This document shows positions 1 through 54,360 of a stretch of 54,360 nt of DNA, in pieces. The notes below the pieces were generated by a model. That model was not told the origin of the DNA and made no database searches. It worked only from the letters and a program-made list of their open reading frames with translations. Position numbers and translations under genes: made by a program. Within the stretch, counting starts at the first letter, position 1; the number at the start of each line of letters is the position of its first letter. The stretch comes from a virus, in UHGV virus genome UHGV-1841366, one strand, 5' to 3'.

Positions 1-20
1 TTAAGCAACCATTCTTCACA

Positions 21-48
21 ATGCCCGGCAACACGCTGGGCATTTTTA
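21..48 (+). terminator. rho-independent terminator-like hairpin
   Basis: 9-bp stem (ATGCCCGGC / GCTGGGCAT, one G-U) with 5-nt loop followed by TTTTTA; read directly from sequence. Confidence 0.55.
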
Positions 49-84
49 TATAGACACAATCCCTTCTGACTTTAACAAACCCTA

Positions 85-97
85 AAACAATTTGTTT
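85..97. promoter_or_regulatory. palindromic motif AAACAA-N-TTGTTT (copy 1)
   Basis: Perfect 6-1-6 inverted repeat; same motif recurs at 136-148, 2561-2573, 19186-19198, 46517-46529, 48549-48561 and degenerate copies elsewhere. Confidence 0.5.
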
Positions 98-135
98 TCT
101 GCCTTTTGTTAATTGAGATAATAAGCCACATAAGA

Positions 136-148
136 AAACAAATTGTTT
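136..148. promoter_or_regulatory. palindromic motif AAACAA-N-TTGTTT (copy 2)
   Basis: Perfect inverted repeat, immediately upstream of GGAG and the ATG at 162. Confidence 0.5.
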
Positions 149-161
149 CGGAGTGGTTGAA

Positions 162-461
162 ATGTTGAACATTACCCAAGCCTACCAGGTGGCATTGATC
201 AGTTCATCTCATACATCAGAGGAAGATGCTCGCCGATTCATGATCGCAAGCAATGAGCTGGATTGGGTTTCGCAAATTGACGGCGGTTGTATTGTCCACG
301 CCGGGTTACAGGATGATGTCTGGAAAGACGACTTGCGTCGATATGGTATATCCGAAGGCGCGATTGCTAACATTCAGAAAGTACTTGATGTAGGCTTTGA
401 CTCTGTACATTTTGATTGTGGTGCGCCGGTCGTTGAAGGGCTTGAGTGCTGGAACTGGTAA
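162..461 (+). CDS. hypothetical protein
   Basis: ORF-track frame 153..461; ATG at 162 lies 9 nt after GGAG. No recognisable domain. Confidence 0.5.
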   Translation: MLNITQAYQVALISSSHTSEEDARRFMIASNELDWVSQIDGGCIVHAGLQDDVWKDDLRRYGISEGAIANIQKVLDVGFDSVHFDCGAPVVEGLECWNW

Positions 462-589
462 ATCTGCAAACAGATTCAAACCGTTGATAATGGCGGTCAC
501 AATTTGATTCTTTTCTATAAGAATCCGTTGATCGCCACTACTCCCCTTCCATATCTGCAATCACATCCTTAAATATCAATAAGTTATAG

Positions 590-1330
590 TTGTTTATACA
601 AACCAGAAAACAACTGAATAACAGATCAATGAAACCTCAACACTTTCACCCGATTTGGTCTAAAAAATTGACGTTTTCACACATCACTTCTTATACCCGC
701 AATTCTACGCAGCAGACAGCGCCACAGCGTCCAATTTTCACCACAGACGACTCAACACACTACCAACAAAAACACACGCTCAAAATCGCTCCCGTTGCGT
801 TACACAACCATATAAACAACTTATTTTCAGGAATAACAAAACAACTAAATAACACATGCGCCATTCCCAAAAACAACCAACCTCTTTATGGCAGGCTACC
901 GAAAAGACCCACCTCTTCTTCCCAGGCTACCGGACAACCAACCTAACTTTCACAGGCAATACGAAAACATTCATGCGCGCGATACCCACGACACGCCATT
1001 CCCCAAACAGCGAAGAAACACCAGAATCACTGAAACCCCAACGAAGCCTGTTACCGCAAGGATTCTCTCAATCCCAAAAGACACGAAACATAACAATCAC
1101 GGGAAACGCCATTACCCAATACACGAATAACCACAAAAGCCTTTCACACACTCCAGACAAACAACTCAAACACAATAACGAAAGGAATCGCCCACCTGCC
1201 ATTACTCCATACACGGAGAAAAACAATCACCAAAACGACGAGAACACCCCATAGAAGAACCACCGCAAAACGAACGAAACCATTTACACCGACAGAGAGA
1301 ACAACACACCCAATTCACCAACAGAATTAG
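590..1330. other. A+C-rich (G- and T-poor on + strand) non-coding region
   Basis: Hand counts on 60-nt lines give about 68-77 percent A+C. The three overlapping + strand ORFs here are explained by stop-codon depletion in AC-rich sequence. Confidence 0.6.
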
Positions 1331-1454
1331 TCGCCGTATAGAACGTTCTGGAAGGAGTGAGCATTAACGTCCATAGAGAGGTTGAGACAGATAAAACACG
1401 AAGAAAACACAACATGTATAGCGAAGAAGCCAGGTATGTATAAGTGGGGAGGGA

Positions 1455-1478
1455 AGGAGGGGTGTCGCCTCCTTTTTC
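1455..1478 (+). terminator. rho-independent terminator-like hairpin
   Basis: Stem AGGAGG / CCTCCT with 7-nt loop followed by TTTT; lies just after the A+C-rich region. Confidence 0.5.
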
Positions 1479-1545
1479 GTATTTATTCAACTCCTGATTT
1501 TATCCCCCGTAACACCCCTACGGTCAGCCTTCGGTCCATACAGGG

Positions 1546-1675
1546 GAAAGGCTGCATCCCGCTACAGAAACGGCTGGATTGCCTTCGGGGAACGGCTGGA
1601 GGCTTTCAGGGAGACGGTCGAGTTGCCTTTGTGGGTTTCGGGAAAAGGCTCGATGCCGGTTCAGGAACGGCGGCG
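1546..1675. repeat. iteron-like array, six imperfect GRAAMGGCYG repeats
   Basis: Copies start near 1546, 1567, 1589, 1610, 1642 and 1664; spacing 21-22 bp with one 32-bp step. Confidence 0.6.
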
Positions 1676-2039
1676 TACAGGTATAGCGAGAGGGAGAGTT
1701 GCGGCTACCCACCTGTAATGTGCGGGAAGAAGAGAGACGCTCACGTGCAGGTGAACTTACTTACCGCTGGATTCCCTCTGAATGCCCAGCTACAGCGTAA
1801 TTGTGCCAGACAGTCAGCGGGTCACAATCGATTTCAGTAGGTTTTCGGGGAGAGGATTATTCTGTCCACCAGCCACCTTCGGCCACTAAATCAGAATAAT
1901 GTAAAAAGTGTACTCGGTACTGAACCTGAAAAATCACTGCCAAAACCACATTCACCGGAATAAAATCCTTTTTCGCCTTTGCGTTATTGCGATAATAACA
2001 CCAACAAGAAAACAACGTGTTTAGGCAAAGGAGAAATAC

Positions 2040-2216
2040 ATGTACAGGCATCTGAATGTCAGTATCACCCTCGATGACGTTATCCACTCTCAGGATGTAG
2101 CTGGTCGCGTGGTGACGCTCATCTCTGAAGGATACAGAGAAGGGATGTTTGATTTCCATATCGAGGACAACCCAATGTCCGTCGCGTGGAACTGCACGAC
2201 GTCAGAAACAAAGTGA
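2040..2216 (+). CDS. hypothetical small protein (58 aa)
   Basis: Not in the ORF track (under 60 aa). ATG at 2040 is 6 nt after AAAGGAG; translated by hand to a TGA stop at 2214-2216; a degenerate palindromic motif lies upstream at 2010-2022. Confidence 0.4.
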   Translation: MYRHLNVSITLDDVIHSQDVAGRVVTLISEGYREGMFDFHIEDNPMSVAWNCTTSETK

Positions 2217-2226
2217 GGGTGAATAG

Positions 2227-2445
2227 ATGATTAAGATGCCTGTGATGGTTGAGGTGTGGAACGTGGATTCCCTGGCCGAGTGCCTGGATGCAGTGGGGCC
2301 GGAGCTGTATCGCAAATTGTGGTCGTTCGTCCCGGCTGAAGGGGAATCACCCAAAGGGAAGGAGATCTGGCACCTGCTCAGTGAAGATGAACAGCGGGAG
2401 CTGGTGGACGCGGTACACATTGAGTTCCCGGACGACGAAGATTAA
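2227..2445 (+). CDS. hypothetical acidic protein
   Basis: ORF track; GAGGGTG precedes the ATG; acidic C-terminus (FPDDED). Confidence 0.45.
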   Translation: MIKMPVMVEVWNVDSLAECLDAVGPELYRKLWSFVPAEGESPKGKEIWHLLSEDEQRELVDAVHIEFPDDED

Positions 2446-2560
2446 GAGTGAGGCCACCAGCACGGTGGCTTTTTGCTGTTTGCAACCTCCGGGGCAGCGC
2501 AGCGCCGTAACGCTATGCTTTGTAGCCTTTTTCTTACTGGTATTATTTACGCCATTGAGA

Positions 2561-2573
2561 AAACAAGTTGTTT
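2561..2573. promoter_or_regulatory. palindromic motif AAACAA-N-TTGTTT (copy 3)
   Basis: Perfect inverted repeat followed by ACGGAG and the ATG at 2585. Confidence 0.5.
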
Positions 2574-2584
2574 ACGGAGTTGTG

Positions 2585-2899
2585 ATGAAAAAATCATTGG
2601 TTCTTGGTCTGGACAAAGACCAGAAGAGAAAAGAGAAGCCTGCACTGGTTGCTCAATTAACTTTGCTGGACATCGTTGCCAATGGAACCTCTATTCGTCT
2701 GTTCCGTGAAACAGCGGTGTCTTTCGATAAAAACACCTTTACTCGTTATGTAATGAATGTTCGTCGCCAGCGTGGAAAAGGCTGGGTGGCATTTCAAAGA
2801 ATGTGGCCTGCACATCAGCTCGAGCTGGCTTTGATGGAAGTAAACCGCGTGGCCCAGCAAGAAATTCAGAGAGCATCAGTGATGGCAACAGCCTGGTAA
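2585..2899 (+). CDS. hypothetical protein
   Basis: In-frame internal start of ORF 2249..2899 (begins MKKSLVLGL); chosen because motif plus GGAG sit directly upstream and the longer N-terminus overlaps gene 2227..2445. Terminator follows. Confidence 0.55.
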   Translation: MKKSLVLGLDKDQKRKEKPALVAQLTLLDIVANGTSIRLFRETAVSFDKNTFTRYVMNVRRQRGKGWVAFQRMWPAHQLELALMEVNRVAQQEIQRASVMATAW

Positions 2900-2931
2900 T
2901 GTGCAAGTGGTAATTAGTCGACAGTACGACA

Positions 2932-2958
2932 GCCCCGACGTCCTTACGGGGCTTTTTT
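2932..2958 (+). terminator. rho-independent terminator
   Basis: GCCCCG / CGGGGC stem with 9-nt loop followed by TTTTTT. Confidence 0.7.
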
Positions 2959-3022
2959 GTATTGTAAGCACATACCTACGATCATAGAATAGAAAAATAA
3001 CTAATACACTACGGAGAGTGAA

Positions 3023-3418
3023 ATGACCGTTAAACGCGAAAAACTGACAGTTGATGTTTACTATGCCTCTGAAACCGCCGAAGGTAAGAATGTGGCAAAA
3101 ATTACCGTTGTTACGTACAACACCGAAACTGGTGCCGAAGTACAGGCCAGTACGATCGTGCGTAAAGGTGATGCCTCCGGCGGCGAGTACGCGACTCAAT
3201 ACCAGTCCATTCTCGATGCAACTGACCCGCTGCTGCTGAAAATCGAGAACTACTTCCGCCAGGTTGATGAAGAGGTGTTTGAAACCATGATGAATATGGT
3301 TAATTCCGTATTCACCTCCAGCCTGAACACCCGCACTACCTGGATTGGTCAGTACGGTCTGCGTATTACCTCCGGCATTCCTGCTGACACCTTAATCCCT
3401 GAAAGCGTATTCGCTTAA
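3023..3418 (+). CDS. hypothetical protein
   Basis: ORF track; ACGGAGAG upstream of the ATG; terminator downstream. Confidence 0.55.
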   Translation: MTVKREKLTVDVYYASETAEGKNVAKITVVTYNTETGAEVQASTIVRKGDASGGEYATQYQSILDATDPLLLKIENYFRQVDEEVFETMMNMVNSVFTSSLNTRTTWIGQYGLRITSGIPADTLIPESVFA

Positions 3419-3427
3419 TCCTCTTTA

Positions 3428-3455
3428 AATGGCGCGTAAACCTCGCCATTTTCTT
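3428..3455 (+). terminator. rho-independent terminator-like hairpin
   Basis: AATGGCG / CGCCATT stem followed by a T-rich run. Confidence 0.55.
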
Positions 3456-3535
3456 ATACCCGATAATAATTTGTTTTCTACCTTATCTGATTTGTGAAAA
3501 TGATTTCACTGAAGCAACTTAATAAGGAAAAAATC

Positions 3536-3910
3536 ATGGGACTTGATATCTACATCGAGACGCAGCCAAAAAACGATCTGAATAACGATACATCCAGATG
3601 GCAGGTTGGCTACTTCCGCAAGTTCAATGCGCTTGTATCGTGGGTGGAGAATAACGTTGGTATGGTTGAGAACTGTGAACTTGTGGAGCTTAACCGTGAG
3701 CATTTGCTGAAGCTGAAAGCAGACCTGGATTGTCTCAATAAAGAAAATTGCAGTGAAATAATGCCCACAATGGAAGGATTCTTTTTCGGCAGTCAGGAGT
3801 ACGACGACTTCTACTGGAGAGACGTGGATGAACTGAGAGAACTCACGGAACAGCTGATAGAGAATCACGATTTCGACAATAACAGACTGACGTTCTGCGC
3901 CTGGTGGTAA
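3536..3910 (+). CDS. hypothetical protein
   Basis: In-frame ATG (MGLDIYIE) of ORF 3494..3910 preceded by AAGGAAAAAA; the start at 3494 has no ribosome-binding site. Confidence 0.5.
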   Translation: MGLDIYIETQPKNDLNNDTSRWQVGYFRKFNALVSWVENNVGMVENCELVELNREHLLKLKADLDCLNKENCSEIMPTMEGFFFGSQEYDDFYWRDVDELRELTEQLIENHDFDNNRLTFCAWW

Positions 3911-3912
3911 AT

Positions 3913-4056
3913 ATGGGCGATTTCAAGAAAACCCTGAAGGAAAGAACCGAAATGGTCAGAAAGCAAAACGCCTCTTCTGTCATCAGATACGCAAGGCAGT
4001 TCAGCAAAAACAACAGACAGATTGAAGAGCAAATCAAATCAGTCATAGTCAGATAA
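3913..4056 (+). CDS. hypothetical small protein (47 aa)
   Basis: Not in the ORF track; ATG 3 nt after the previous stop, hand-translated to TAA at 4054-4056, followed by a strong terminator. Confidence 0.4.
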   Translation: MGDFKKTLKERTEMVRKQNASSVIRYARQFSKNNRQIEEQIKSVIVR

Positions 4057-4061
4057 GAAAC

Positions 4062-4104
4062 AGCGCCAGAAAAGCCAACGGGAGCGATTCTGGCGCTTTT
4101 TTTG
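4062..4104 (+). terminator. rho-independent terminator
   Basis: 9-bp stem AGCGCCAGA / TCTGGCGCT followed by TTTTTTT. Confidence 0.7.
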
Positions 4105-4221
4105 TTCTGGTGACAGGATTACTCCTGTCAGGGCTGTTTCTTTTGTTACAGACGCTATCATGAAGACAAAAAGAGAAGGAAGATCACTGATAGGTCTGGG
4201 AGTTACTTCAGTTTTAAAAAT

Positions 4222-4278
4222 GCCTGCTTCCGTATATATAAATAATAAGTAACTTAATAAATATATACGGAAGCAGGC
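4222..4278. repeat. long AT-rich-loop hairpin, copy A of three
   Basis: GCCTGCTTCCGTATATAT ... ATATATACGGAAGCAGGC; near-identical copies at 19067-19122 and 47623-47669. Confidence 0.7.
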
Positions 4279-4530
4279 ACTGTTAAGACTCCAGAAGTGA
4301 GCAAAAATCAACCTAAAAAGACACTGAACTCACCAGAATAAACTTAACCAGCCAGTACAGGCGCTGAAGTCTTCCGTAGCAGGCATCAAAGGGAATTTCG
4401 TTAAGGTACTTCAGCATAGGGTGGATGGATATCAAACCGTATGTGTATTGCCTCTCGTTTGATGCCTCCTGAAGCACCTTTAAAAGTTTTTTAAAAGCGC
4501 TACAATGACTATCAGATAAGAGGAGGTTTT

Positions 4531-4782
4531 ATGAGCTATCAAATTCTGACGACGACAGCAGCCAGCATTACTGAGCTGAAAAGAAACCCTATGGGCACTG
4601 TAGCTGAAGGTGAGGGGGAGGCCGTCGCAATCCTGAACCGGAATGAACCCGCGTTTTACTGTGTCCCACCAGAACTTTATGCCTACTATCGGGAACTCGC
4701 CGAGGACGCTGAACTTAACGCGATTGCAGATGAAAGAATGAAAGAACCGGACATTGTGAAGGTTAACCTGAATGACCTATGA
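4531..4782 (+). CDS. type II antitoxin, RelB/StbD-like
   Basis: 83 aa; overlaps the downstream RelE-like gene by 11 nt; C-terminus (DAEL...VKVNLNDL) resembles the RelB C-terminus as I remember it; GAGGAGG ribosome-binding site. Confidence 0.6.
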   Translation: MSYQILTTTAASITELKRNPMGTVAEGEGEAVAILNRNEPAFYCVPPELYAYYRELAEDAELNAIADERMKEPDIVKVNLNDL

Positions 4783-5053
4783 GCTGGCATTTGAACGCAG
4801 GGCACTGAAAGAATGGCAGAAGCTCGGCCACACTGTTCGTGAACAATTCAAAAAGAAGCTGTCAGAGCGCCTGAAAAATCCACATGTCCCCGCAGCCAGG
4901 CTATATGGTCATACTGACCGTTACAAAATTAAGCTTCGCGCATCCGGTTACAGGCTCGTTTATCAGGTAATTGATGAGAAGGTTGTTTTGCTTGTCATTG
5001 CTGTAGGAAAAAGGGAAAGCAGCGAAGTCTATCACACGGCTGATACTCGTTAG
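4772..5053 (+). CDS. relE: type II toxin, RelE/ParE superfamily
   Basis: 93 aa; the stretch YKIKLRASGYRLVYQVIDEKVVLLVIAVGKRESSEVY closely matches the E. coli RelE sequence as I recall it (not database-checked). Confidence 0.7.
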   Translation: MTYELAFERRALKEWQKLGHTVREQFKKKLSERLKNPHVPAARLYGHTDRYKIKLRASGYRLVYQVIDEKVVLLVIAVGKRESSEVYHTADTR

Positions 5054-5100
5054 CAAAGTGCGCCTTATATCCTCGCCTGTTGACTAAATCTCATAATAAC

Positions 5101-5314
5101 CTGAGGTCAATTTCTTCTGTTTGTGACCTCAGGTTAATTTCCTTTATTTATAACCTTAACTTATTAGGCTGCATTTTATTCCGCGTCATCGCTTCATTAT
5201 TTATGTATATGGCGACCTTATTTAATTACGCCCACCTGAACTTACTTCTTTTCCGCCTGTTTCATTCAGCGATAATTAACGCATCGAAACGAAACTAAAC
5301 GAAAGGAGTTAAAA
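5101..5314 (+). promoter_or_regulatory. leader region duplicated upstream of 6217 (copy 1)
   Basis: Perfect inverted repeat CCTGAGGTCA/TGACCTCAGG at 5101-5134, then a block about 85 percent identical to 6143-6216 ending in the ribosome-binding site and ATG. Confidence 0.55.
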
Positions 5315-6034
5315 ATGAGTGCGCGTCTTAAGAAGCTTATCAAAAAGCGTAAATCTCTTAAAGAACATGCAGAATTGATAAATTTAATTGAAAAACGTTT
5401 TCCAGTCATTTCGGATATTGAGGACTTCTATTGGGTGGAGAAATGTAAAGTTTGGGATGGCATTGATGATGTAAAAGATGTGGATGATTTTGTCAGCAAG
5501 TACAACCCAGACATTAACTACAAACTAGCTGATGATTTTGCTGGCTCGTCTAAAGATGATCCGCTTCCTGATTGGTTTAACATTGATGATTATCCTAGTT
5601 GCATGTGTACCACCTACACCAACAAAGATTTTAGTAAAGCGTGGTTTGCTATTGCTTATGGCTGTTATTTCAATAAGTCCGACGGAAGCAAAAGACCATA
5701 TTTTCTCGCTGAAATAGACTTAACCAGCGGAGAGATTACAGTACACGAAAACCACAGGAATCTAATGAAGCTTGTTGATAGCGTTCGCGTACTGGATACA
5801 GACGCCCAGCAATTAACGAACAATGCATGGTTCGGACTTGATGGAGTAAAAGGGGGTATCGAACTGATAATGGGTCATCTTTTAAATGAATACTCGGACT
5901 GGTATCATCCGCCACACAATCCGCTTGAGTCATTTGACGATCCGCTTGAGCCATTTGACGATCCGCTGAAGGACTACATCGATGAACCAATATATATGAT
6001 GGAATCTTTTCAATTAGATATGATTCCAGCATGA
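5315..6034 (+). CDS. hypothetical acidic protein, paralog of 8730..9377
   Basis: 239 aa, very D/E-rich; shares the block AWF..(16-18 aa)..LAEIDL(T/L)SG(E/K)ITV and a C-terminal LEPLESF/PLESFDD motif with the minus-strand protein at 8730..9377. Confidence 0.55.
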   Translation: MSARLKKLIKKRKSLKEHAELINLIEKRFPVISDIEDFYWVEKCKVWDGIDDVKDVDDFVSKYNPDINYKLADDFAGSSKDDPLPDWFNIDDYPSCMCTTYTNKDFSKAWFAIAYGCYFNKSDGSKRPYFLAEIDLTSGEITVHENHRNLMKLVDSVRVLDTDAQQLTNNAWFGLDGVKGGIELIMGHLLNEYSDWYHPPHNPLESFDDPLEPFDDPLKDYIDEPIYMMESFQLDMIPA

Positions 6035-7143: not shown

Positions 7144-7346
7144 AAACAAGGCCACCACTGCTGGTGGCCTTAAATGACCATCCTGTCTCCCGCAGGCTAA
7201 AAACACCAACCTCTTACCTCCAGGCAACCGACAAACCCACCTGTTCCCGTCCGGCTACCGCAACTTTCCACTTTGACGCCTTATTCGTACAACCATAATT
7301 AACACCAACAAGAGAACAATTTGTTATTTAGAATAAGGAATCAATC

Positions 7347-7829
7347 ATGAATTTTATCGCTACTGTAAACGCACCCGCACATGGCAATATCGCTGTAACG
7401 TTCTCTGACACTGAAAAACGAGTACTTGGTGCATGGCGCGACAATGAGACGGTAGAACTGTCAGCACAAGAAAAATGCATTATTGCACGCGACATCATTG
7501 GCAATCGTCGTTACTCGCGGGTATTTGAGAAAGCGTATGTGGTAAATTCTGGGTTCGGAACGTTCGTCTTTCCGGTGCGCTCCGGGCGATTCTGCCAGTC
7601 CAAGCTGATTGAGTTCGCTACGCAGATTTCTGTCTGGATTAAAACTCAATCGTCGTTCAAATTTTCCGACGATGAAGCAGTATCGCAGGGGATGCGGATC
7701 GCCAACAATGCAATTAAATGCAAAAACATTACGTATACCGCTGGCGTTGACACATGGAGACTGTTTTGCGCTAACTTTATGCTGAATGTATACGCAAGCA
7801 ACCGCATCCACATCCTTGATGGCGTGTAA
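7347..7829 (+). CDS. hypothetical protein
   Basis: ORF track; AAGGAA ribosome-binding site; variant palindromic motif at 7314-7326 upstream; terminator downstream. Confidence 0.55.
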   Translation: MNFIATVNAPAHGNIAVTFSDTEKRVLGAWRDNETVELSAQEKCIIARDIIGNRRYSRVFEKAYVVNSGFGTFVFPVRSGRFCQSKLIEFATQISVWIKTQSSFKFSDDEAVSQGMRIANNAIKCKNITYTAGVDTWRLFCANFMLNVYASNRIHILDGV

Positions 7830-7838
7830 CTGAGAAGA

Positions 7839-7860
7839 GGGCCAGAAACGGCCCTTTCTC
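7839..7860 (+). terminator. rho-independent terminator
   Basis: GGGCC / GGCCC stem with AGAAAC loop followed by TTTCTCT. Confidence 0.6.
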
Positions 7861-7955
7861 TATAGCCACCAGCTGCCGCAGGGAAATTTTCAGAAACGGC
7901 TAGGAACGCATTCATGAGCCGACGGGAAACGGCCAGGATTTTTTCGGGAAACGGC
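7845..7955. repeat. cluster of four GAAACGGC repeats
   Basis: GAAACGGC at 7845, 7893, 7926 and 7948 (last two 22 bp apart), flanked by a 9-bp inverted repeat CCACCAGCT (7866-7874) / AGCTGGTGG (7989-7997). Confidence 0.5.
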
Positions 7956-8365
7956 TACATTTGCCTTTATGTAGAAAAAACATCGGGAAGCTGGTGGAAT
8001 CCAATCAGCGGTTGTCGGACAGGTGAGCGGGGAAAATCATTATGACTCTCGTCACCTGAGACATCCAGATTTCTTTCATAGCGTAATCACATACGTGATT
8101 AAGTGGTGTGATTATGTGAAAAATCACGCGCACATAATACGCGAGCGGATACGGAACAAAACAAAATGCAGATTCGCGCCGACAAATAAACGCGGATCAT
8201 AAAGCAAGACTAAAAGCCAATGATTAACTATGCGCTATAGCGCAATATAACGCATTTTAAGCGCGTTAATGTGTTAAGTAATGGGTATGTACTGGCAAGG
8301 ATATAAAAGCGCGTCCATGGCGTTATTTTGGCGCTTATTTTTATGTTGTTGGAGTGAGTTAAAGA

Positions 8366-8391
8366 CAATAAAAAAGCGCCATCATTGGCGC
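8366..8391 (-). terminator. rho-independent terminator (minus strand)
   Basis: GCGCCA / TGGCGC stem with 4-nt loop; on the minus strand it is followed by a T-run (complement of AAAAA at 8371-8375). Confidence 0.55.
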
Positions 8392-8414
8392 GTTATGGTG
8401 GGAGTATTGGAAAC

Positions 8415-8439
8415 GAAAAAAGCGCCCATAGTGGGCGCT
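8415..8439 (-). terminator. rho-independent terminator (minus strand, possibly bidirectional)
   Basis: AGCGCCCA / TGGGCGCT stem; T-run on the minus strand; just downstream of the stop of the minus-strand gene 8445..8675. Confidence 0.6.
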
Positions 8440-8444
8440 CGATT

Positions 8445-8675
8445 TTATTTATGTAAACTGATTTCAAATCCCATTTCTACAAACGCTTTTAACATTAAAA
8501 ATATATCAGCGTCGTTCACGTCTGCTTTTTTCCGCTCCTGGTCGCTCAATAAGTCAATTTTGCGCGTCGTTTCGTCTATAAGCTCGACTGCGCGCCCAGC
8601 GTAACCAGCGATCCCAGCGATGCGATTAACATAATATTCATTATGGACGTTAACGCCAGCGATTAAAATAATCAT
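8445..8675 (-). CDS. hypothetical protein
   Basis: ORF track; AAGGAG about 10 nt upstream of the ATG on the minus strand. Confidence 0.5.
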   Translation of the reverse strand: MIILIAGVNVHNEYYVNRIAGIAGYAGRAVELIDETTRKIDLLSDQERKKADVNDADIFLMLKAFVEMGFEISLHK

Positions 8676-8696
8676 GCTTTAAAAACTCCTTTAAAT

Positions 8697-8714
8697 GCGC
8701 CCATATTTGGGCGC
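8697..8714. repeat. 18-bp palindrome GCGCCCATATTTGGGCGC (copy 1)
   Basis: Identical 18-mer at 9451-9468; each lies just downstream of a minus-strand gene stop. Confidence 0.6.
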
Positions 8715-10423: not shown

Positions 10424-10987
10424 TTAAAATGGAAGGATTCGGTCAACCCAATCGAAGAGAACAATCATTCTTGCATGTTCCCTGATTTTCATCGTCACCT
10501 GACAAGCATCAACGCCTAACGACACTCCCTCTATTTCACGGCCATCCGCCATGTAGACCCTTATAGATCTGCCGTTTTGATGAGCTTTGCGACATATCTT
10601 AAAAAAGTCACGACGTGATGGCTGGTTGTTCACGTAGTCAGGATGTACGGTAAGCCTGTCCGCAAAGTCCCCATCTACTTCTGGAGGTATAATCGTTTCT
10701 ATAGAGCTAACTTTCCCAAGAGGAAGACGAACTCGACGCTCTTTGCTTCTTGGAACGGGTGATAGATCAAGTTTGTTGCGTGATGGTAGTGTTCCCTGTA
10801 CATACATGTTGAATACCTGTCCATCTTCCATCGTGACTTTTACAGGAACAGAGTGTGCCCTCCAGAACATCAAGGTATGTTCCACATTAGAATAGTCTCG
10901 CGGCCATACTTCAGCCGGTATGCCGTATGTAATATCTTTCGTCGTCATATCATTATAAAGTGGTTGGCAATATGTCCATTGTACCAT
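10424..10987 (-). CDS. hypothetical protein
   Basis: ORF track, 187 aa; overlaps the upstream lipoprotein gene by 35 nt, so the true start may be the internal ATG at 10948; no clear ribosome-binding site for either. Confidence 0.4.
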   Translation of the reverse strand: MVQWTYCQPLYNDMTTKDITYGIPAEVWPRDYSNVEHTLMFWRAHSVPVKVTMEDGQVFNMYVQGTLPSRNKLDLSPVPRSKERRVRLPLGKVSSIETIIPPEVDGDFADRLTVHPDYVNNQPSRRDFFKICRKAHQNGRSIRVYMADGREIEGVSLGVDACQVTMKIREHARMIVLFDWVDRILPF

Positions 10988-46564: not shown

Positions 46565-47233
46565 ATGACCAAGATCTTTGTGGTTGGCGGCACAAAGGGC
46601 GGGCCTGGCAAATCCACCGTTGCCCAGCAAATTGCCGTTTGCCTGAAAGTCAAAAAGAAGAAGAAGGTTTATATCACTGATATAGATATTCAGCGCACGA
46701 CAACAAGCTGGTGTGAAGACCGTCGACAGAACGAAGACCTTGAGCTGATTCCTTTTGCATACGTTCAGGATGACATCATTAAGCACCTAAAATCACTTCA
46801 GGGTAGAGCTGAGTTTGTAGTGGTAGATGCTGGTGGCTTTGACTCCGAAATTCAGCGACAAGCGATGCTGATGGCTGACGTTATCATTATCCCGCTTCGT
46901 CCTAAGCGTCGTGATTTGAAATCTCTGCGTGACATCGATCCTATTATCGACAATGTTCGTAATGTAAACGATAAAGTGAAGGTCCGCGCGGTCATGAACC
47001 AGTGCCCGGCTTTGCCATCACAAGTGTCTCGCATTCTGGCGGCTAAAGAGATTGTCGAGACGTTTGGCATCGAGTCTGCGCCTGTCAATCTATATAACCG
47101 CAACGTCTACGATGATGCGGAAGAGTCTGGTCGTTCTATCTTTGAAATGACCGGTAGCGAGCGCGACAAAAAGGCGGAAGCCGAGTTTGAAGAATTTGTA
47201 GATTATCTGTTGAGTCTGGAGGAAGAAGAATAA
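46565..47233 (+). CDS. parA: ParA-family partition ATPase (small, type Ib-like)
   Basis: 222 aa; deviant Walker A GGTKGGPGKST; no N-terminal DNA-binding extension. Confidence 0.75.
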   Translation: MTKIFVVGGTKGGPGKSTVAQQIAVCLKVKKKKKVYITDIDIQRTTTSWCEDRRQNEDLELIPFAYVQDDIIKHLKSLQGRAEFVVVDAGGFDSEIQRQAMLMADVIIIPLRPKRRDLKSLRDIDPIIDNVRNVNDKVKVRAVMNQCPALPSQVSRILAAKEIVETFGIESAPVNLYNRNVYDDAEESGRSIFEMTGSERDKKAEAEFEEFVDYLLSLEEEE

Positions 47234-47592
47234 TGTCCATGAAAATGGGTGACCTAGCAAAGCGCAAAGAGCCTGATGCACCGGCTAAGAACACAACTCC
47301 TTTGCGCCAACCAGTCAGACCACAGGGACGCCCGACTCGTGGCAAAGAGAAAATTAAAAGCCGCACAATGTCACTGGAAGACGAATACTTCGAACTGCTG
47401 GAGATGATGAAGTTCATCCCTCGTTTCGAGAAGTTCACCCGTTCTGACGTGATTCGAGCAGCTATTTTCCATCTGGCAGAGAAGTCACCGCAGGAAATCG
47501 AGGACATCGTGAAACTTAACGAGGCGATCACAGCTGCCGACGTTACTATGCGTACCGATGAAATCAAGCGAGAACTCATGAAAAAAGGCTGA
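47233..47592 (+). CDS. ParG-like small centromere-binding protein (putative)
   Basis: 119 aa translationally coupled to parA (TAATG); basic disordered N-terminus and short C-terminal helical region. Confidence 0.5.
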   Translation: MSMKMGDLAKRKEPDAPAKNTTPLRQPVRPQGRPTRGKEKIKSRTMSLEDEYFELLEMMKFIPRFEKFTRSDVIRAAIFHLAEKSPQEIEDIVKLNEAITAADVTMRTDEIKRELMKKG

Positions 47593-47796: not shown

Positions 47797-48537
47797 ATGA
47801 GCCAAATCTTTTTCGACACAATCGACAACGACCAGTACGACTTCATGACAGAGTGGAATACCGCTGTTATGGACAAGTGGGTTGCTGAAAACATTGGTTT
47901 GTCGCGCTGCAAAGACGAGGCTGAACTCTTCTATACGAAGTGGTTTGATTACCGCGACATGCATCCTCTTATGGCTACCTGTCTGTTTACGGAGGCATAC
48001 AAACGTCAGTACTCAAATATCATGCTGACGCACGGTCGCGAACACTTTGAAACAGCTCCGTTTACCACCGGGTTAAAACGCCTGCCTTATCAGGAGTTGT
48101 CGACTGCCAATAAAACGTCGCTATGGAAAGCACGCCAGTTTGCTGACCGCTATTGCTGCTCATACGACTACTTTATCTCCACCGTGCTTTCCGCAGCTGC
48201 ACGACGTCTGTGGGACAAGCTGCCTCGCCCACAACATTTGTGGCAGCCAGAACTGATTGAGATATTTGAAGAGAAATTAGCCAGGCGCGCAACAACCCGT
48301 CTGGATGACTCTCTGGTTAGCTTTAAGCATATGGGAGACATGCAGTTCAACCCGATCCAGGAAAGCTATTTTGAGTGGATTCTGGAGCGTTTACGCACCA
48401 TCCCCCGCAGCAAGCGCATACGCGCAATTTTCTCCGCTATCTGGCTAATGGAAATCGTTCCAGAGCGCCTTATTTCCGCCCACTTTCCAGAAGAACTGGA
48501 AGAAGCACGGCGGTTTATTGATCCCCTATCTAATTAA
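47797..48537 (+). CDS. hypothetical protein (replication-module position)
   Basis: In-frame ATG after AGGTGAG; 246 aa; upstream of the helicase; no motif recognised. Confidence 0.5.
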   Translation: MSQIFFDTIDNDQYDFMTEWNTAVMDKWVAENIGLSRCKDEAELFYTKWFDYRDMHPLMATCLFTEAYKRQYSNIMLTHGREHFETAPFTTGLKRLPYQELSTANKTSLWKARQFADRYCCSYDYFISTVLSAAARRLWDKLPRPQHLWQPELIEIFEEKLARRATTRLDDSLVSFKHMGDMQFNPIQESYFEWILERLRTIPRSKRIRAIFSAIWLMEIVPERLISAHFPEELEEARRFIDPLSN

Positions 48538-54113: not shown

Positions 54114-54188
54114 GATGGTGTAGCTCAGCGGCAGAGCAGTTGGCTGTTAACCAACTGGTCGGTGGTTCGAATCCACCCACCATCGCCA
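54114..54188 (+). tRNA. tRNA-Asn (anticodon GTT)
   Basis: Hand-folded cloverleaf: acceptor GATGGTG/CACCATC, D-stem GCTC/GAGC, anticodon stem GTTGG/CCAAC with loop CTGTTAA, T-arm GGTGG-TTCGAAT-CCACC, discriminator G, encoded CCA; 75 nt. Confidence 0.8.
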
Positions 54189-54193
54189 ATTTA

Positions 54194-54280
54194 GGGGAGT
54201 TAGTCCGTAGGGGTAGCGGGGTAGACTGTAAATCTACTGTCATTGCGACTCGGGTGGTTCGACTCCATCACTCCCCACCA
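54194..54280 (+). tRNA. tRNA-Tyr (anticodon GTA), long variable arm
   Basis: Acceptor GGGGAGT/ACTCCCC, anticodon stem GTAGA/TCTAC with loop CTGTAAA, 15-nt variable arm, T-loop TTCGACT, encoded CCA; 87 nt. Confidence 0.75.
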
Positions 54281-54284
54281 AATT

Positions 54285-54360
54285 GCCGGTTTAGCTCAGT
54301 TGGTAGAGCAGTCGCTTTGTAAGCGAATGGCCAGCGGTTCAAGTCCGTTAACCGGCACCA
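54285..54360 (+). tRNA. tRNA-Thr (anticodon TGT)
   Basis: Acceptor GCCGGTT/AACCGGC, D-arm TAGCTCAGTTGGTAGAGC, anticodon loop TTTGTAA, T-loop TTCAAGT, encoded CCA; 76 nt fits standard numbering; ends exactly at the window edge. Confidence 0.7.

Follow-up and report, generated by a model that had tools for sequence, protein, structure and literature searches.

The stretch of DNA analysed here, referred to below as the window, comprises all 54,360 nucleotides of UHGV virus genome UHGV-1841366 and is about half of an Escherichia coli phage-plasmid of the SSU5/pHCM2 type. Close to its start lies an array of six short direct repeats (array 1) and, about 6 kb away on the same strand, a second array of the same motif (array 2), with a segment of small genes between them (Table 1). 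The family assignment follows from the sequence matches and from the genes found in the relatives. Megablast of positions 400-2500 returned the Escherichia phages PhiR41_1, Cyrano and CMS-2020a, Salmonella phage SSU5 and 674 plasmids in PLSDB, nearly all of them non-mobilizable and about 105-115 kb long, from Klebsiella, Escherichia, Enterobacter, Salmonella and Citrobacter; the PLSDB records examined in detail are typed IncFIB. Annotated relatives encode terminase, portal, capsid and tail proteins together with DnaB, primase, DnaE, ParA and repA. An original prediction, made from the letters of the window alone, had suggested a phage-plasmid lifestyle, which these matches and genes bear out.

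Two arrays of a single motif

Each copy in array 1 consists of a core of about ten informative nucleotides (S-R-G-R-A-A-M-G-G-C, referred to below as the GGAAACGGC motif) followed by some 12 weakly conserved ones. The resulting 22-nt units are mutually just 60-70% identical, and the DNA around them is 59% GC. The copies start 22, 22, 22, 31 and 22 nt apart, and a degenerate seventh element is found near 1690, with the counterpart GGGACGGC in the SSU5 lineage. The original prediction had described six iteron-like repeats spaced by about 22 bp. All six are real and lie no more than one nucleotide from where it had placed them, and "iteron-like" is a fair description of an anatomy of phased protein-binding direct repeats.

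The periodicity also lies far above that of shuffled sequence. With the loose pattern G[AG][AG]A[ACG]GG[CGT], used for the statistics, 6 copies fall within 130 nt (mean 2.2 and maximum 4 in 300 dinucleotide shuffles of the window) and 5 pairs are separated by exactly 22 nt (mean 0.01 and maximum 1 in the same number of shuffles). When only the G-rich interval 1480-1760 (281 nt) is shuffled, the mean is 0.6 copies and the maximum 5 in 2000 trials, against the 6 observed. Array 1 is strongly non-random, is under purifying selection and is half of a pair.

The other half, array 2, was missed by the original prediction. It starts about 65 nt past the stop codon of the open reading frame (ORF) at 7347-7829, and GGGAA-type half-elements lie between its three copies. 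A further copy of the motif, at 7845, falls within the loop and 3' stem of the terminator hairpin of the operon, the stem of which changes between lineages from GGGCC/GGCCC to GGGGC/GCCCC. The distance from this terminator copy to the next copy of array 2 is variable and out of helical phase.

How far is the motif confined to the two arrays? A position-specific scoring matrix (PSSM) was built from 38 units of four lineages and applied to the window at a threshold that random sequence passes about four times per window. Of the 13 matches, 9 fall within the arrays, and another, on the other strand, coincides in part with the terminator copy at 7845. The complete sequence of the relative pXH988_2 (107.6 kb) reaches scores of at least 12 only in the two arrays and in one isolated copy, which corresponds to that at 2775 in the window.

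Table 1. Positions of the two arrays, of the features around them and of the replication origin of the family
Feature	Position	Strand	Remarks
A/C-rich, G/T-poor stretch, ~800 nt	590..1400	+	Composition conserved in all lineages, sequence not
ORF of the original prediction	1382..1840	+	Not a gene; composition artefact
G.U-rich hairpin and T-tract, intrinsic-terminator-like	1451..1478	+	~65 nt upstream of array 1
Conserved 45-nt block	1480..1525	+	..TATTCAAS..ATCCCCCGTAAC..; between hairpin and array 1
Array 1	1545..1673	+	Six SRGRAAMGGC copies, starting at 1545 (GGAAAGGCTG), 1567 (GAAACGGCTG), 1589 (GGAACGGCTG), 1611 (GAGACGGTCG), 1642 (GAAAAGGCTC) and 1664 (GGAACGGCGG)
Inverted repeat	1856-1900		ATTATTCTG/CAGAATAAT; just upstream of promoter-like site
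Promoter-like site	1937..1966	+	CTGCCA-18-TAAAAT; ahead of first small ORF (2040)
Bracketed segment	2040..7829	+	Small genes: phrog_15489, 6757, 2473, 7971, 1641
Isolated motif copy	2775..2784	+	GAAAAGGCTG; inside bracketed segment
Intrinsic-terminator hairpin of the operon	7838..7862	+	GAGGGCC-AGAAAC-GGCCCTTTCTC
Array 2	7893..7957	+	Three phased GAAACGGC copies at 7893, 7926 and 7948 (spacing 33, 22)
Candidate DNA-binding partner, 216 amino acids	9482..10132	-	Helical N-terminal part and C-terminal winged helix
Candidate RNA-binding partner, FljA homologue (PF03614)	10424..10987	-	Two tandem Hfq/Sm-like domains predicted
Genuine oriR of the family	L016 17200-17740 and 18820-19460 (pXH988_2, outside the window)		CTCTCTAYAGTGGWT iterons around repA

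Conservation and helical phasing

About 90 loci, from Salmonella, Klebsiella, Enterobacter, Citrobacter, Cronobacter and Kluyvera, have both arrays in the same place, with the same orientation and spacing. The pair occurs in the same order in SSU5, in pHCM2, in three kinds of Klebsiella elements and in elements of Enterobacter, Citrobacter, Cronobacter, E. fergusonii, Kluyvera and Buttiauxella, as well as in 72 IMG/VR contigs, wherever the contig extends far enough; Yersinia pestis pMT1 retains array 2 alone. A contig search with a single protein yielded 6 loci, and every locus reached by any route belongs to the same phage-plasmid family.

Across the relatives, array 1 is nearly always spaced 22/22/22/31/22 and array 2 33-34/22, and this spacing is preserved although the spacers drop to about 65-70% identity. 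The number of units shifts in whole 22-nt steps, with 22 nt fewer in PhiR41, 44 nt fewer in E-T84 and 4 to 7 copies in others. Among the high-scoring copies of 93 distinct arrays the spacings are 21-23 nt (190 cases), 31 nt (39), 33-34 nt (40), 42-44 nt (11), 52 nt (1) and 28 nt (6), the last being the sole out-of-phase class. Thus 260 of the 287 spacings deviate by no more than 0.2 turn from an integral number of helical turns of 10.5 bp, in counts that are not phylogenetically independent. The start-to-start distance between array 1 and array 2 ranges from 1.5 to 6.3 kb among relatives (median 3.3 kb), so that what lies between them is of variable content.

The plasmid replicon lies elsewhere

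Are the arrays the Rep-binding iterons of a plasmid origin, as the original prediction held? The 22-bp phased repeats and the replication of the element as a plasmid would agree with this. The arrays also resemble RepA-type iterons (P1 oriR/incA, F RepFIB, pSC101 and RK2) in that direct repeats with a core of about 10 bp, spaced by about 21-22 bp and hence all facing the same side of the helix, occur in several copies and in more than one array on a replicon. They differ from them in not lying beside a rep gene, in the absence of a DnaA box or unwinding element, in their GC-rich context and in being unrelated in sequence to the resident RepA iterons elsewhere on the replicon. In pXH988_2, repA is found at 37.7-38.8 kb, some 33 kb from the array, in a part of the element not covered by the window. 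Its two flanks hold over 20 CTCTCTAYAGTGGWT copies, in both orientations and spaced by 21 bp, along with DnaA boxes (TGTGGATAA) and short repeats (GGGTCTTTAT and GATC-rich ones). This is a textbook P1/RepFIB-type oriR with iterons unrelated to GGAAACGGC, and a PSSM scan of the whole of pXH988_2 finds no GGAAACGGC match at them. The Cronobacter element, moreover, has another replicon type (rep_cluster_763) and keeps the same arrays. The arrays are not the iterons of the plasmid replicon, and it is highly improbable that they serve the IncFIB(pHCM2) replicon either as RepA iterons or as an auxiliary copy-control (incA-like) locus. The initiator that the original prediction had put forward (47797-48537) fares no better: it belongs to phrog_2500, an uncharacterised phage family, beside DnaB and primase, and no GGAAACGGC copies lie around it.

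The surroundings of the arrays carry few marks of an origin. No DnaA box with up to one mismatch lies beside either array, and the sole one in the scanned intervals, at 2080, is inside the first ORF, about 400 bp downstream of array 1. Next to the two arrays, both of which were checked, there is no integration host factor (IHF) consensus, no GATC cluster and no 40-bp window of at least 72% AT. The GC skew of the whole plasmid tracks transcription and gives no origin signal, and the neighbours of the arrays are small ORFs without assigned function, not an initiator gene.

These observations also bear on a version of the same idea in which the lytic replicon takes the place of the plasmid replicon, with one array acting as the phage origin and the other as an enhancer in cis, both bound by a phage initiator. 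Phased 22-bp direct repeats are classical iteron anatomy, and the motif forms two arrays separated by a few kb. The element encodes a full replisome (DnaB, primase, DnaE and ligase) and, near the arrays, a UvsW-type helicase and a winged-helix protein; the records examined carry no annotation of a lytic origin. A parallel is offered by ori and crr of satellite phage P4, type I iterons to which the alpha protein binds through its winged-helix domain. These too are two clusters of one short repeat several kb apart, and a winged-helix binder would be a shared feature. The P4 octamers, however, run in both orientations and are bound by a primase-helicase, whereas the array copies here are all co-oriented and the candidate binder is a small coiled-coil and winged-helix protein. 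Its single winged helix in 216 amino acids comes without the ATPase or second winged-helix domain of Rep-type initiators. Neither array has an AT-rich unwinding element or any of the other origin signals listed above, both are GC-rich (about 59%), the replication gene module is about 40 kb away, the GC skew is without information on an origin, and the number of units varies freely from 4 to 7. A lytic origin with its enhancer is quite unlikely.

Partition is a further function for which arrays of short direct repeats are used, as in centromeres of types II, III and Ib. Like tubC and parC, the arrays consist of tandem asymmetric repeats that a small DNA-binding protein could coat cooperatively, as TubR, a winged-helix protein, and ParR do. 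They differ from these centromeres in their period (22 bp, against 11-12 bp) and in having no adjacent TubZ, ParM or ParA gene. No NTPase gene is found between or beside the arrays, and the ParA and ParB-like genes (46565-47592) are at least 39 kb from both. Partition of pMT1 is presumably of the P1/P7 type, unlike the small ParA and 119-amino-acid pair here, yet array 2 is kept in that plasmid.

An ORF does span array 1, as would be expected if the repeats encoded a protein; it is not conserved. In most lineages none of the three + strand frames contains a stop codon across array 1, and the openness of this ORF therefore reflects composition. Its frame is shifted in relatives by indels of 22 and 44 nt, and annotators call different ORFs in the region, on either strand, or none, depending on the record. 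In this the original prediction was right, having considered the ORF more probably an artefact of the repeats. A centromere, a repeat-encoded protein or another artefact, taken as one group, is very improbable. Transposon ends were dropped for the wrong relative orientation, a pac or cos site because the small terminase gene is 8.6 kb off, and a CRISPR-like reading was also considered and dropped.

Surroundings of array 1 and the bracketed operon

Every relative has array 1 within a stretch of about 1.5 kb in which no gene is annotated and the layout is conserved. The A/C-rich stretch upstream of it has a GC skew of -0.45 and an AT skew of up to +0.6, with short internal repeats (GCCATTMCCCAA and AGGCTACCG), and it may represent a very large rut-like region for the loading of Rho, C-rich and G-poor, or else an unstructured RNA. 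In RNA-seq of Cyrano the 5' part of this stretch is expressed and the 3' part is not (PMC9928086). The pairs of the hairpin that follows covary (GC/AU/GU), and the hairpin forms on the + strand only. The conserved block between hairpin and array retains 93% identity even in Klebsiella elements; a scan of this block and inspection by eye gave no convincing sigma-70, sigma-32, sigma-54 or sigma-E promoter. On the 3' side of array 1, about 150-200 variable nucleotides precede a second conserved block, which contains the inverted repeat.

Expression data are available from LF82 lysogens carrying Cyrano. According to the S1 table of that study, CYRAN_104, which lies over array 1, reaches log2 values of only 2.6-4.7, whereas the upstream CYRAN_102 reaches up to 9.2 and the first operon gene, CYRAN_105, up to 7.8 (PMC9928086). 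Since CYRAN_104 is low and both its neighbours are high, array 1 lies, in lysogens, in a transcriptionally quiet gap before the operon's own promoter. The same study reported a 723-fold over-expression of an antisense "hypothetical protein", CYRAN_43 (PMC9928086). In the window three consecutive tRNA genes lie at 54114-54357 (+), and these probably explain that value.

The first ORFs downstream of array 1 encode 58 and 72 amino acids. In this element a toxin-antitoxin pair and other cargo have been inserted into the bracketed segment. A near-perfect inverted repeat of about 85 nt (4208-4292) precedes a small antitoxin/RelE-ParE-like pair (4531-5053) by about 240 nt; it gives spurious miRNA-precursor scores in Rfam and is absent where relatives are without the insert. 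Among the genes just upstream of the module are a DUF5983 gene here (153-461, +) and, in relatives, DUF1380 and DUF4942 methyltransferase-like genes. The DUF5983, DUF1380 and DUF4942 families are typically found in anti-restriction islands and in the leading region of conjugative plasmids. By analogy, the bracketed operon may be an early anti-defence block.

Proposed docking sites on double-stranded DNA

What, then, would read the arrays? We tentatively favour the view that they are helically phased docking sites on double-stranded DNA for a protein of the phage-plasmid, and that they stand at both ends of the variable early operon and probably insulate or silence it. Several features point to DNA as the level of recognition. 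The spacings match whole helical turns, they survive the divergence of the spacers, and copy number changes by whole 22-nt units; an invariant core of 10 nt is combined with a variable spacer of 12 nt, as in iterons and operators; and the high-scoring motif is restricted to two loci and one isolated copy. In addition, both arrays directly follow + strand terminator hairpins, array 1 is quiet in lysogens, no hairpin or folding signal is seen at the level of the RNA unit, and a family-restricted winged-helix candidate is encoded 1.5 kb from array 2.

In the proposed arrangement, the six sites of array 1 and the three of array 2 would each lie on one face of the helix, at the promoter-proximal and terminator-distal ends of the block of small, variable early or accessory genes. 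A protein encoded by the phage-plasmid would bind each array cooperatively, and the two nucleoprotein complexes would then pair and loop out the operon, resulting in its insulation or silencing. The existence and phasing of the arrays, their conservation, their confinement to two loci, their placement with respect to the terminators and the operon, and their separateness from the RepA replicon are shown; recognition as DNA, the choice of binder and the looping or silencing are inferred. The lambda operators OL and OR, about 2.3 kb apart, offer a partial precedent, as there too two multi-site clusters flank a block of genes, and cooperative long-range pairing is plausible. Lambda operators are, however, palindromes bound by dimers, whereas the array sites are asymmetric and point in one direction; unlike in lambda, the master repressor of the SSU5/pHCM2-type family is encoded elsewhere (CYRAN_45 in Cyrano).

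The best candidate for the binder would be the neighbouring coiled-coil and winged-helix protein of 216 amino acids. It is found only in the SSU5/pHCM2-type family and is retained with array 2 even in pMT1. The structural model, with a predicted local distance difference test score (pLDDT) of 90, shows a helical hairpin and the C-terminal winged helix, and the Q/N/T-rich helix YTQANQLI is invariant. A search by sequence found no match in the PDB, and Pfam and NCBIfam recognised only FljA (PF03614) and DUF5983 among the neighbouring proteins. On the basis of the predicted fold, it is possible that the protein is a DNA-binding regulator. The minus-strand gene cluster beside array 2, in which both candidate partners are encoded, is conserved in every relative, pMT1 included; since all loci form one syntenic family, co-occurrence cannot separate one candidate binder from another.

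The convergent gap that follows array 2 has no unwinding element; instead, it contains GTGATTA/TAATCAC direct and inverted repeats at 8083-8125, partly conserved in other lineages, and at 8300-8450 three stacked bidirectional terminator hairpins (AAAAAAGCGCC...GGCGC-T-rich).

A number of observations weigh against docking on DNA. All array copies are co-oriented with transcription, and the other conserved neighbour of array 2 is an Hfq-like protein of an mRNA-binding family. The 216-amino-acid protein could equally bind the GTGATTA/TAATCAC repeats just described. The RNA-seq data come from lysogens only and not from the lytic cycle. Finally, array 1 shows some covariation as RNA, unexpectedly for a DNA site. 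RNAalifold was given 16 diverse array-1 sequences, which represent about three independent clades, and the + strand consensus structure has 6 compensatory pairs, with a covariation score of 0.237 against at most 0.106 for partners slid by 1-3 columns and 0/500 shuffles.

A possible RNA platform for the FljA homologue

In a rival reading the arrays would act as RNA, array 1 in the leader and array 2 in the trailer of the + strand operon, and together provide a multi-site platform for the FljA homologue with its predicted tandem Hfq/Sm-like domains. By analogy with FljA and fliC, translation of the transcript would be repressed, or the transcript destabilised, in lysogens. The homologue matches PF03614 with E = 1e-70, its gene lies beside array 2 in all lineages, those of the Klebsiella and Y. 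pestis elements included, and it is expressed at log2 7-8 in Cyrano lysogens. Klebsiella and Y. pestis are non-flagellated hosts, and the FljA homologue would therefore need a target other than flagellin there. The known activity of the family also speaks for a role at the RNA level, as FljA-type repressors block the translation of fliC mRNA (PMC2652032).

In the predicted structure, 94.5% of the + strand consensus is paired and 6 pairs have changed in both partners. The minus strand of the same sequences is clearly inferior, with 23 pairs, a single compensatory change and a covariation term that is positive and so counts as a penalty. Besides the upstream hairpin, the best-supported piece is a 47-nt stem-loop (1625-1671) of three short stems, which carries the 1642 unit in its loop and in which E. 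coli and SSU5 lineages differ by compensatory changes (GCC/GGC to CCC/GGG, GA/UC to CG/CG and UCGG to CCGG). The signal is nevertheless suggestive only, because it comes from about three clades and from a structure that the program chose on the same alignment, because one lineage breaks a pair, and because array 2 is almost without covariation. It amounts to about one event per pair, between two or three clades.

Other observations also count against an RNA platform. There is no reason why RNA should have spacings of whole helical turns, hairpins at the level of the unit are no commoner than when the upstream halves are shuffled, and minimum free energy folding of both strands is no better than that of shuffles. 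The arrays follow terminators, and RNA from array 1 is scarce in lysogens. The E. coli fliC leader, the sequence of which was verified, does not contain the motif (best PSSM score -1.3), and to our knowledge the Salmonella leader does not either. An 11-nt identity, GAGCCGACGGG, between the fliC leader and one unit of array 2 was rejected as a link between FljA and the motif, being specific to the E. coli lineage and overlapping the inferred sigma-28 -10 box. Searches of 1-6000 and 7300-8700 against Rfam gave nothing up to E = 10, and with the gathering score as cut-off the entire window was likewise without a match.

Like the sponge RNAs CsrB and RsmZ, the arrays have many GGA/GGGAA units about every 20 nt on the transcribed strand, here with an FljA homologue nearby, as in the FljA-fliC system, and one that is Hfq-like. 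They differ in matching no Rfam family, in having a core of GAAAMGGC rather than GGA and in that this core is not reliably placed in hairpin loops, although the covarying 47-nt stem-loop does carry one unit there. Nor is array RNA abundant, as CYRAN_104 is at background in LF82 lysogens, and the fliC leader is without the motif. A ToxI-like RNA of a type III toxin-antitoxin system, in which near-identical tandem repeats of 34-45 nt precede a terminator and a toxin gene, was considered and rejected: the units here are 22 nt long and 60-70% identical, the terminator precedes the array, and the downstream ORFs encode 58 and 72 amino acids.

An RNA platform is possible, if rather less probable than docking on DNA. 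In a more far-reaching model, the SSU5/pHCM2-type phage-plasmids would have re-used FljA as their own post-transcriptional regulator, with the two GGGAAACGGC arrays as its RNA platform in leader and trailer. Rho would load on the C-rich, G-poor stretch of about 800 nt, and the whole would be an undescribed RNA-based module for silencing in lysogeny; this we consider unlikely. Overall, docking on DNA ranks first, ahead of the RNA platform, and the lytic origin with its enhancer comes third, while all other readings together receive a small share of the weight.

Significance for the phage-plasmid family

In the literature searched, no account of the arrays, of the A/C-rich module or of the predicted FljA fold was found. 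The family carries the conserved gene-free module of about 1.5 kb and a twin array that is not known to have been annotated. With the replicon and the ORF accounted for, the locus is kept from mis-annotation as a plasmid origin or as a gene, and the arrays can be seen to delimit a hotspot of variable cargo. SSU5/pHCM2-type phage-plasmids are very common in clinical Enterobacteriaceae, with over 690 PLSDB records matching this region, and to them belong the S. Typhi plasmid pHCM2, a large part of Y. pestis pMT1 and elements of Klebsiella. Once found, the factor that reads the arrays would show how early and accessory genes are controlled, or how lytic replication starts, in this family, and would give a function to the winged-helix protein or to the Hfq-like FljA homologue.
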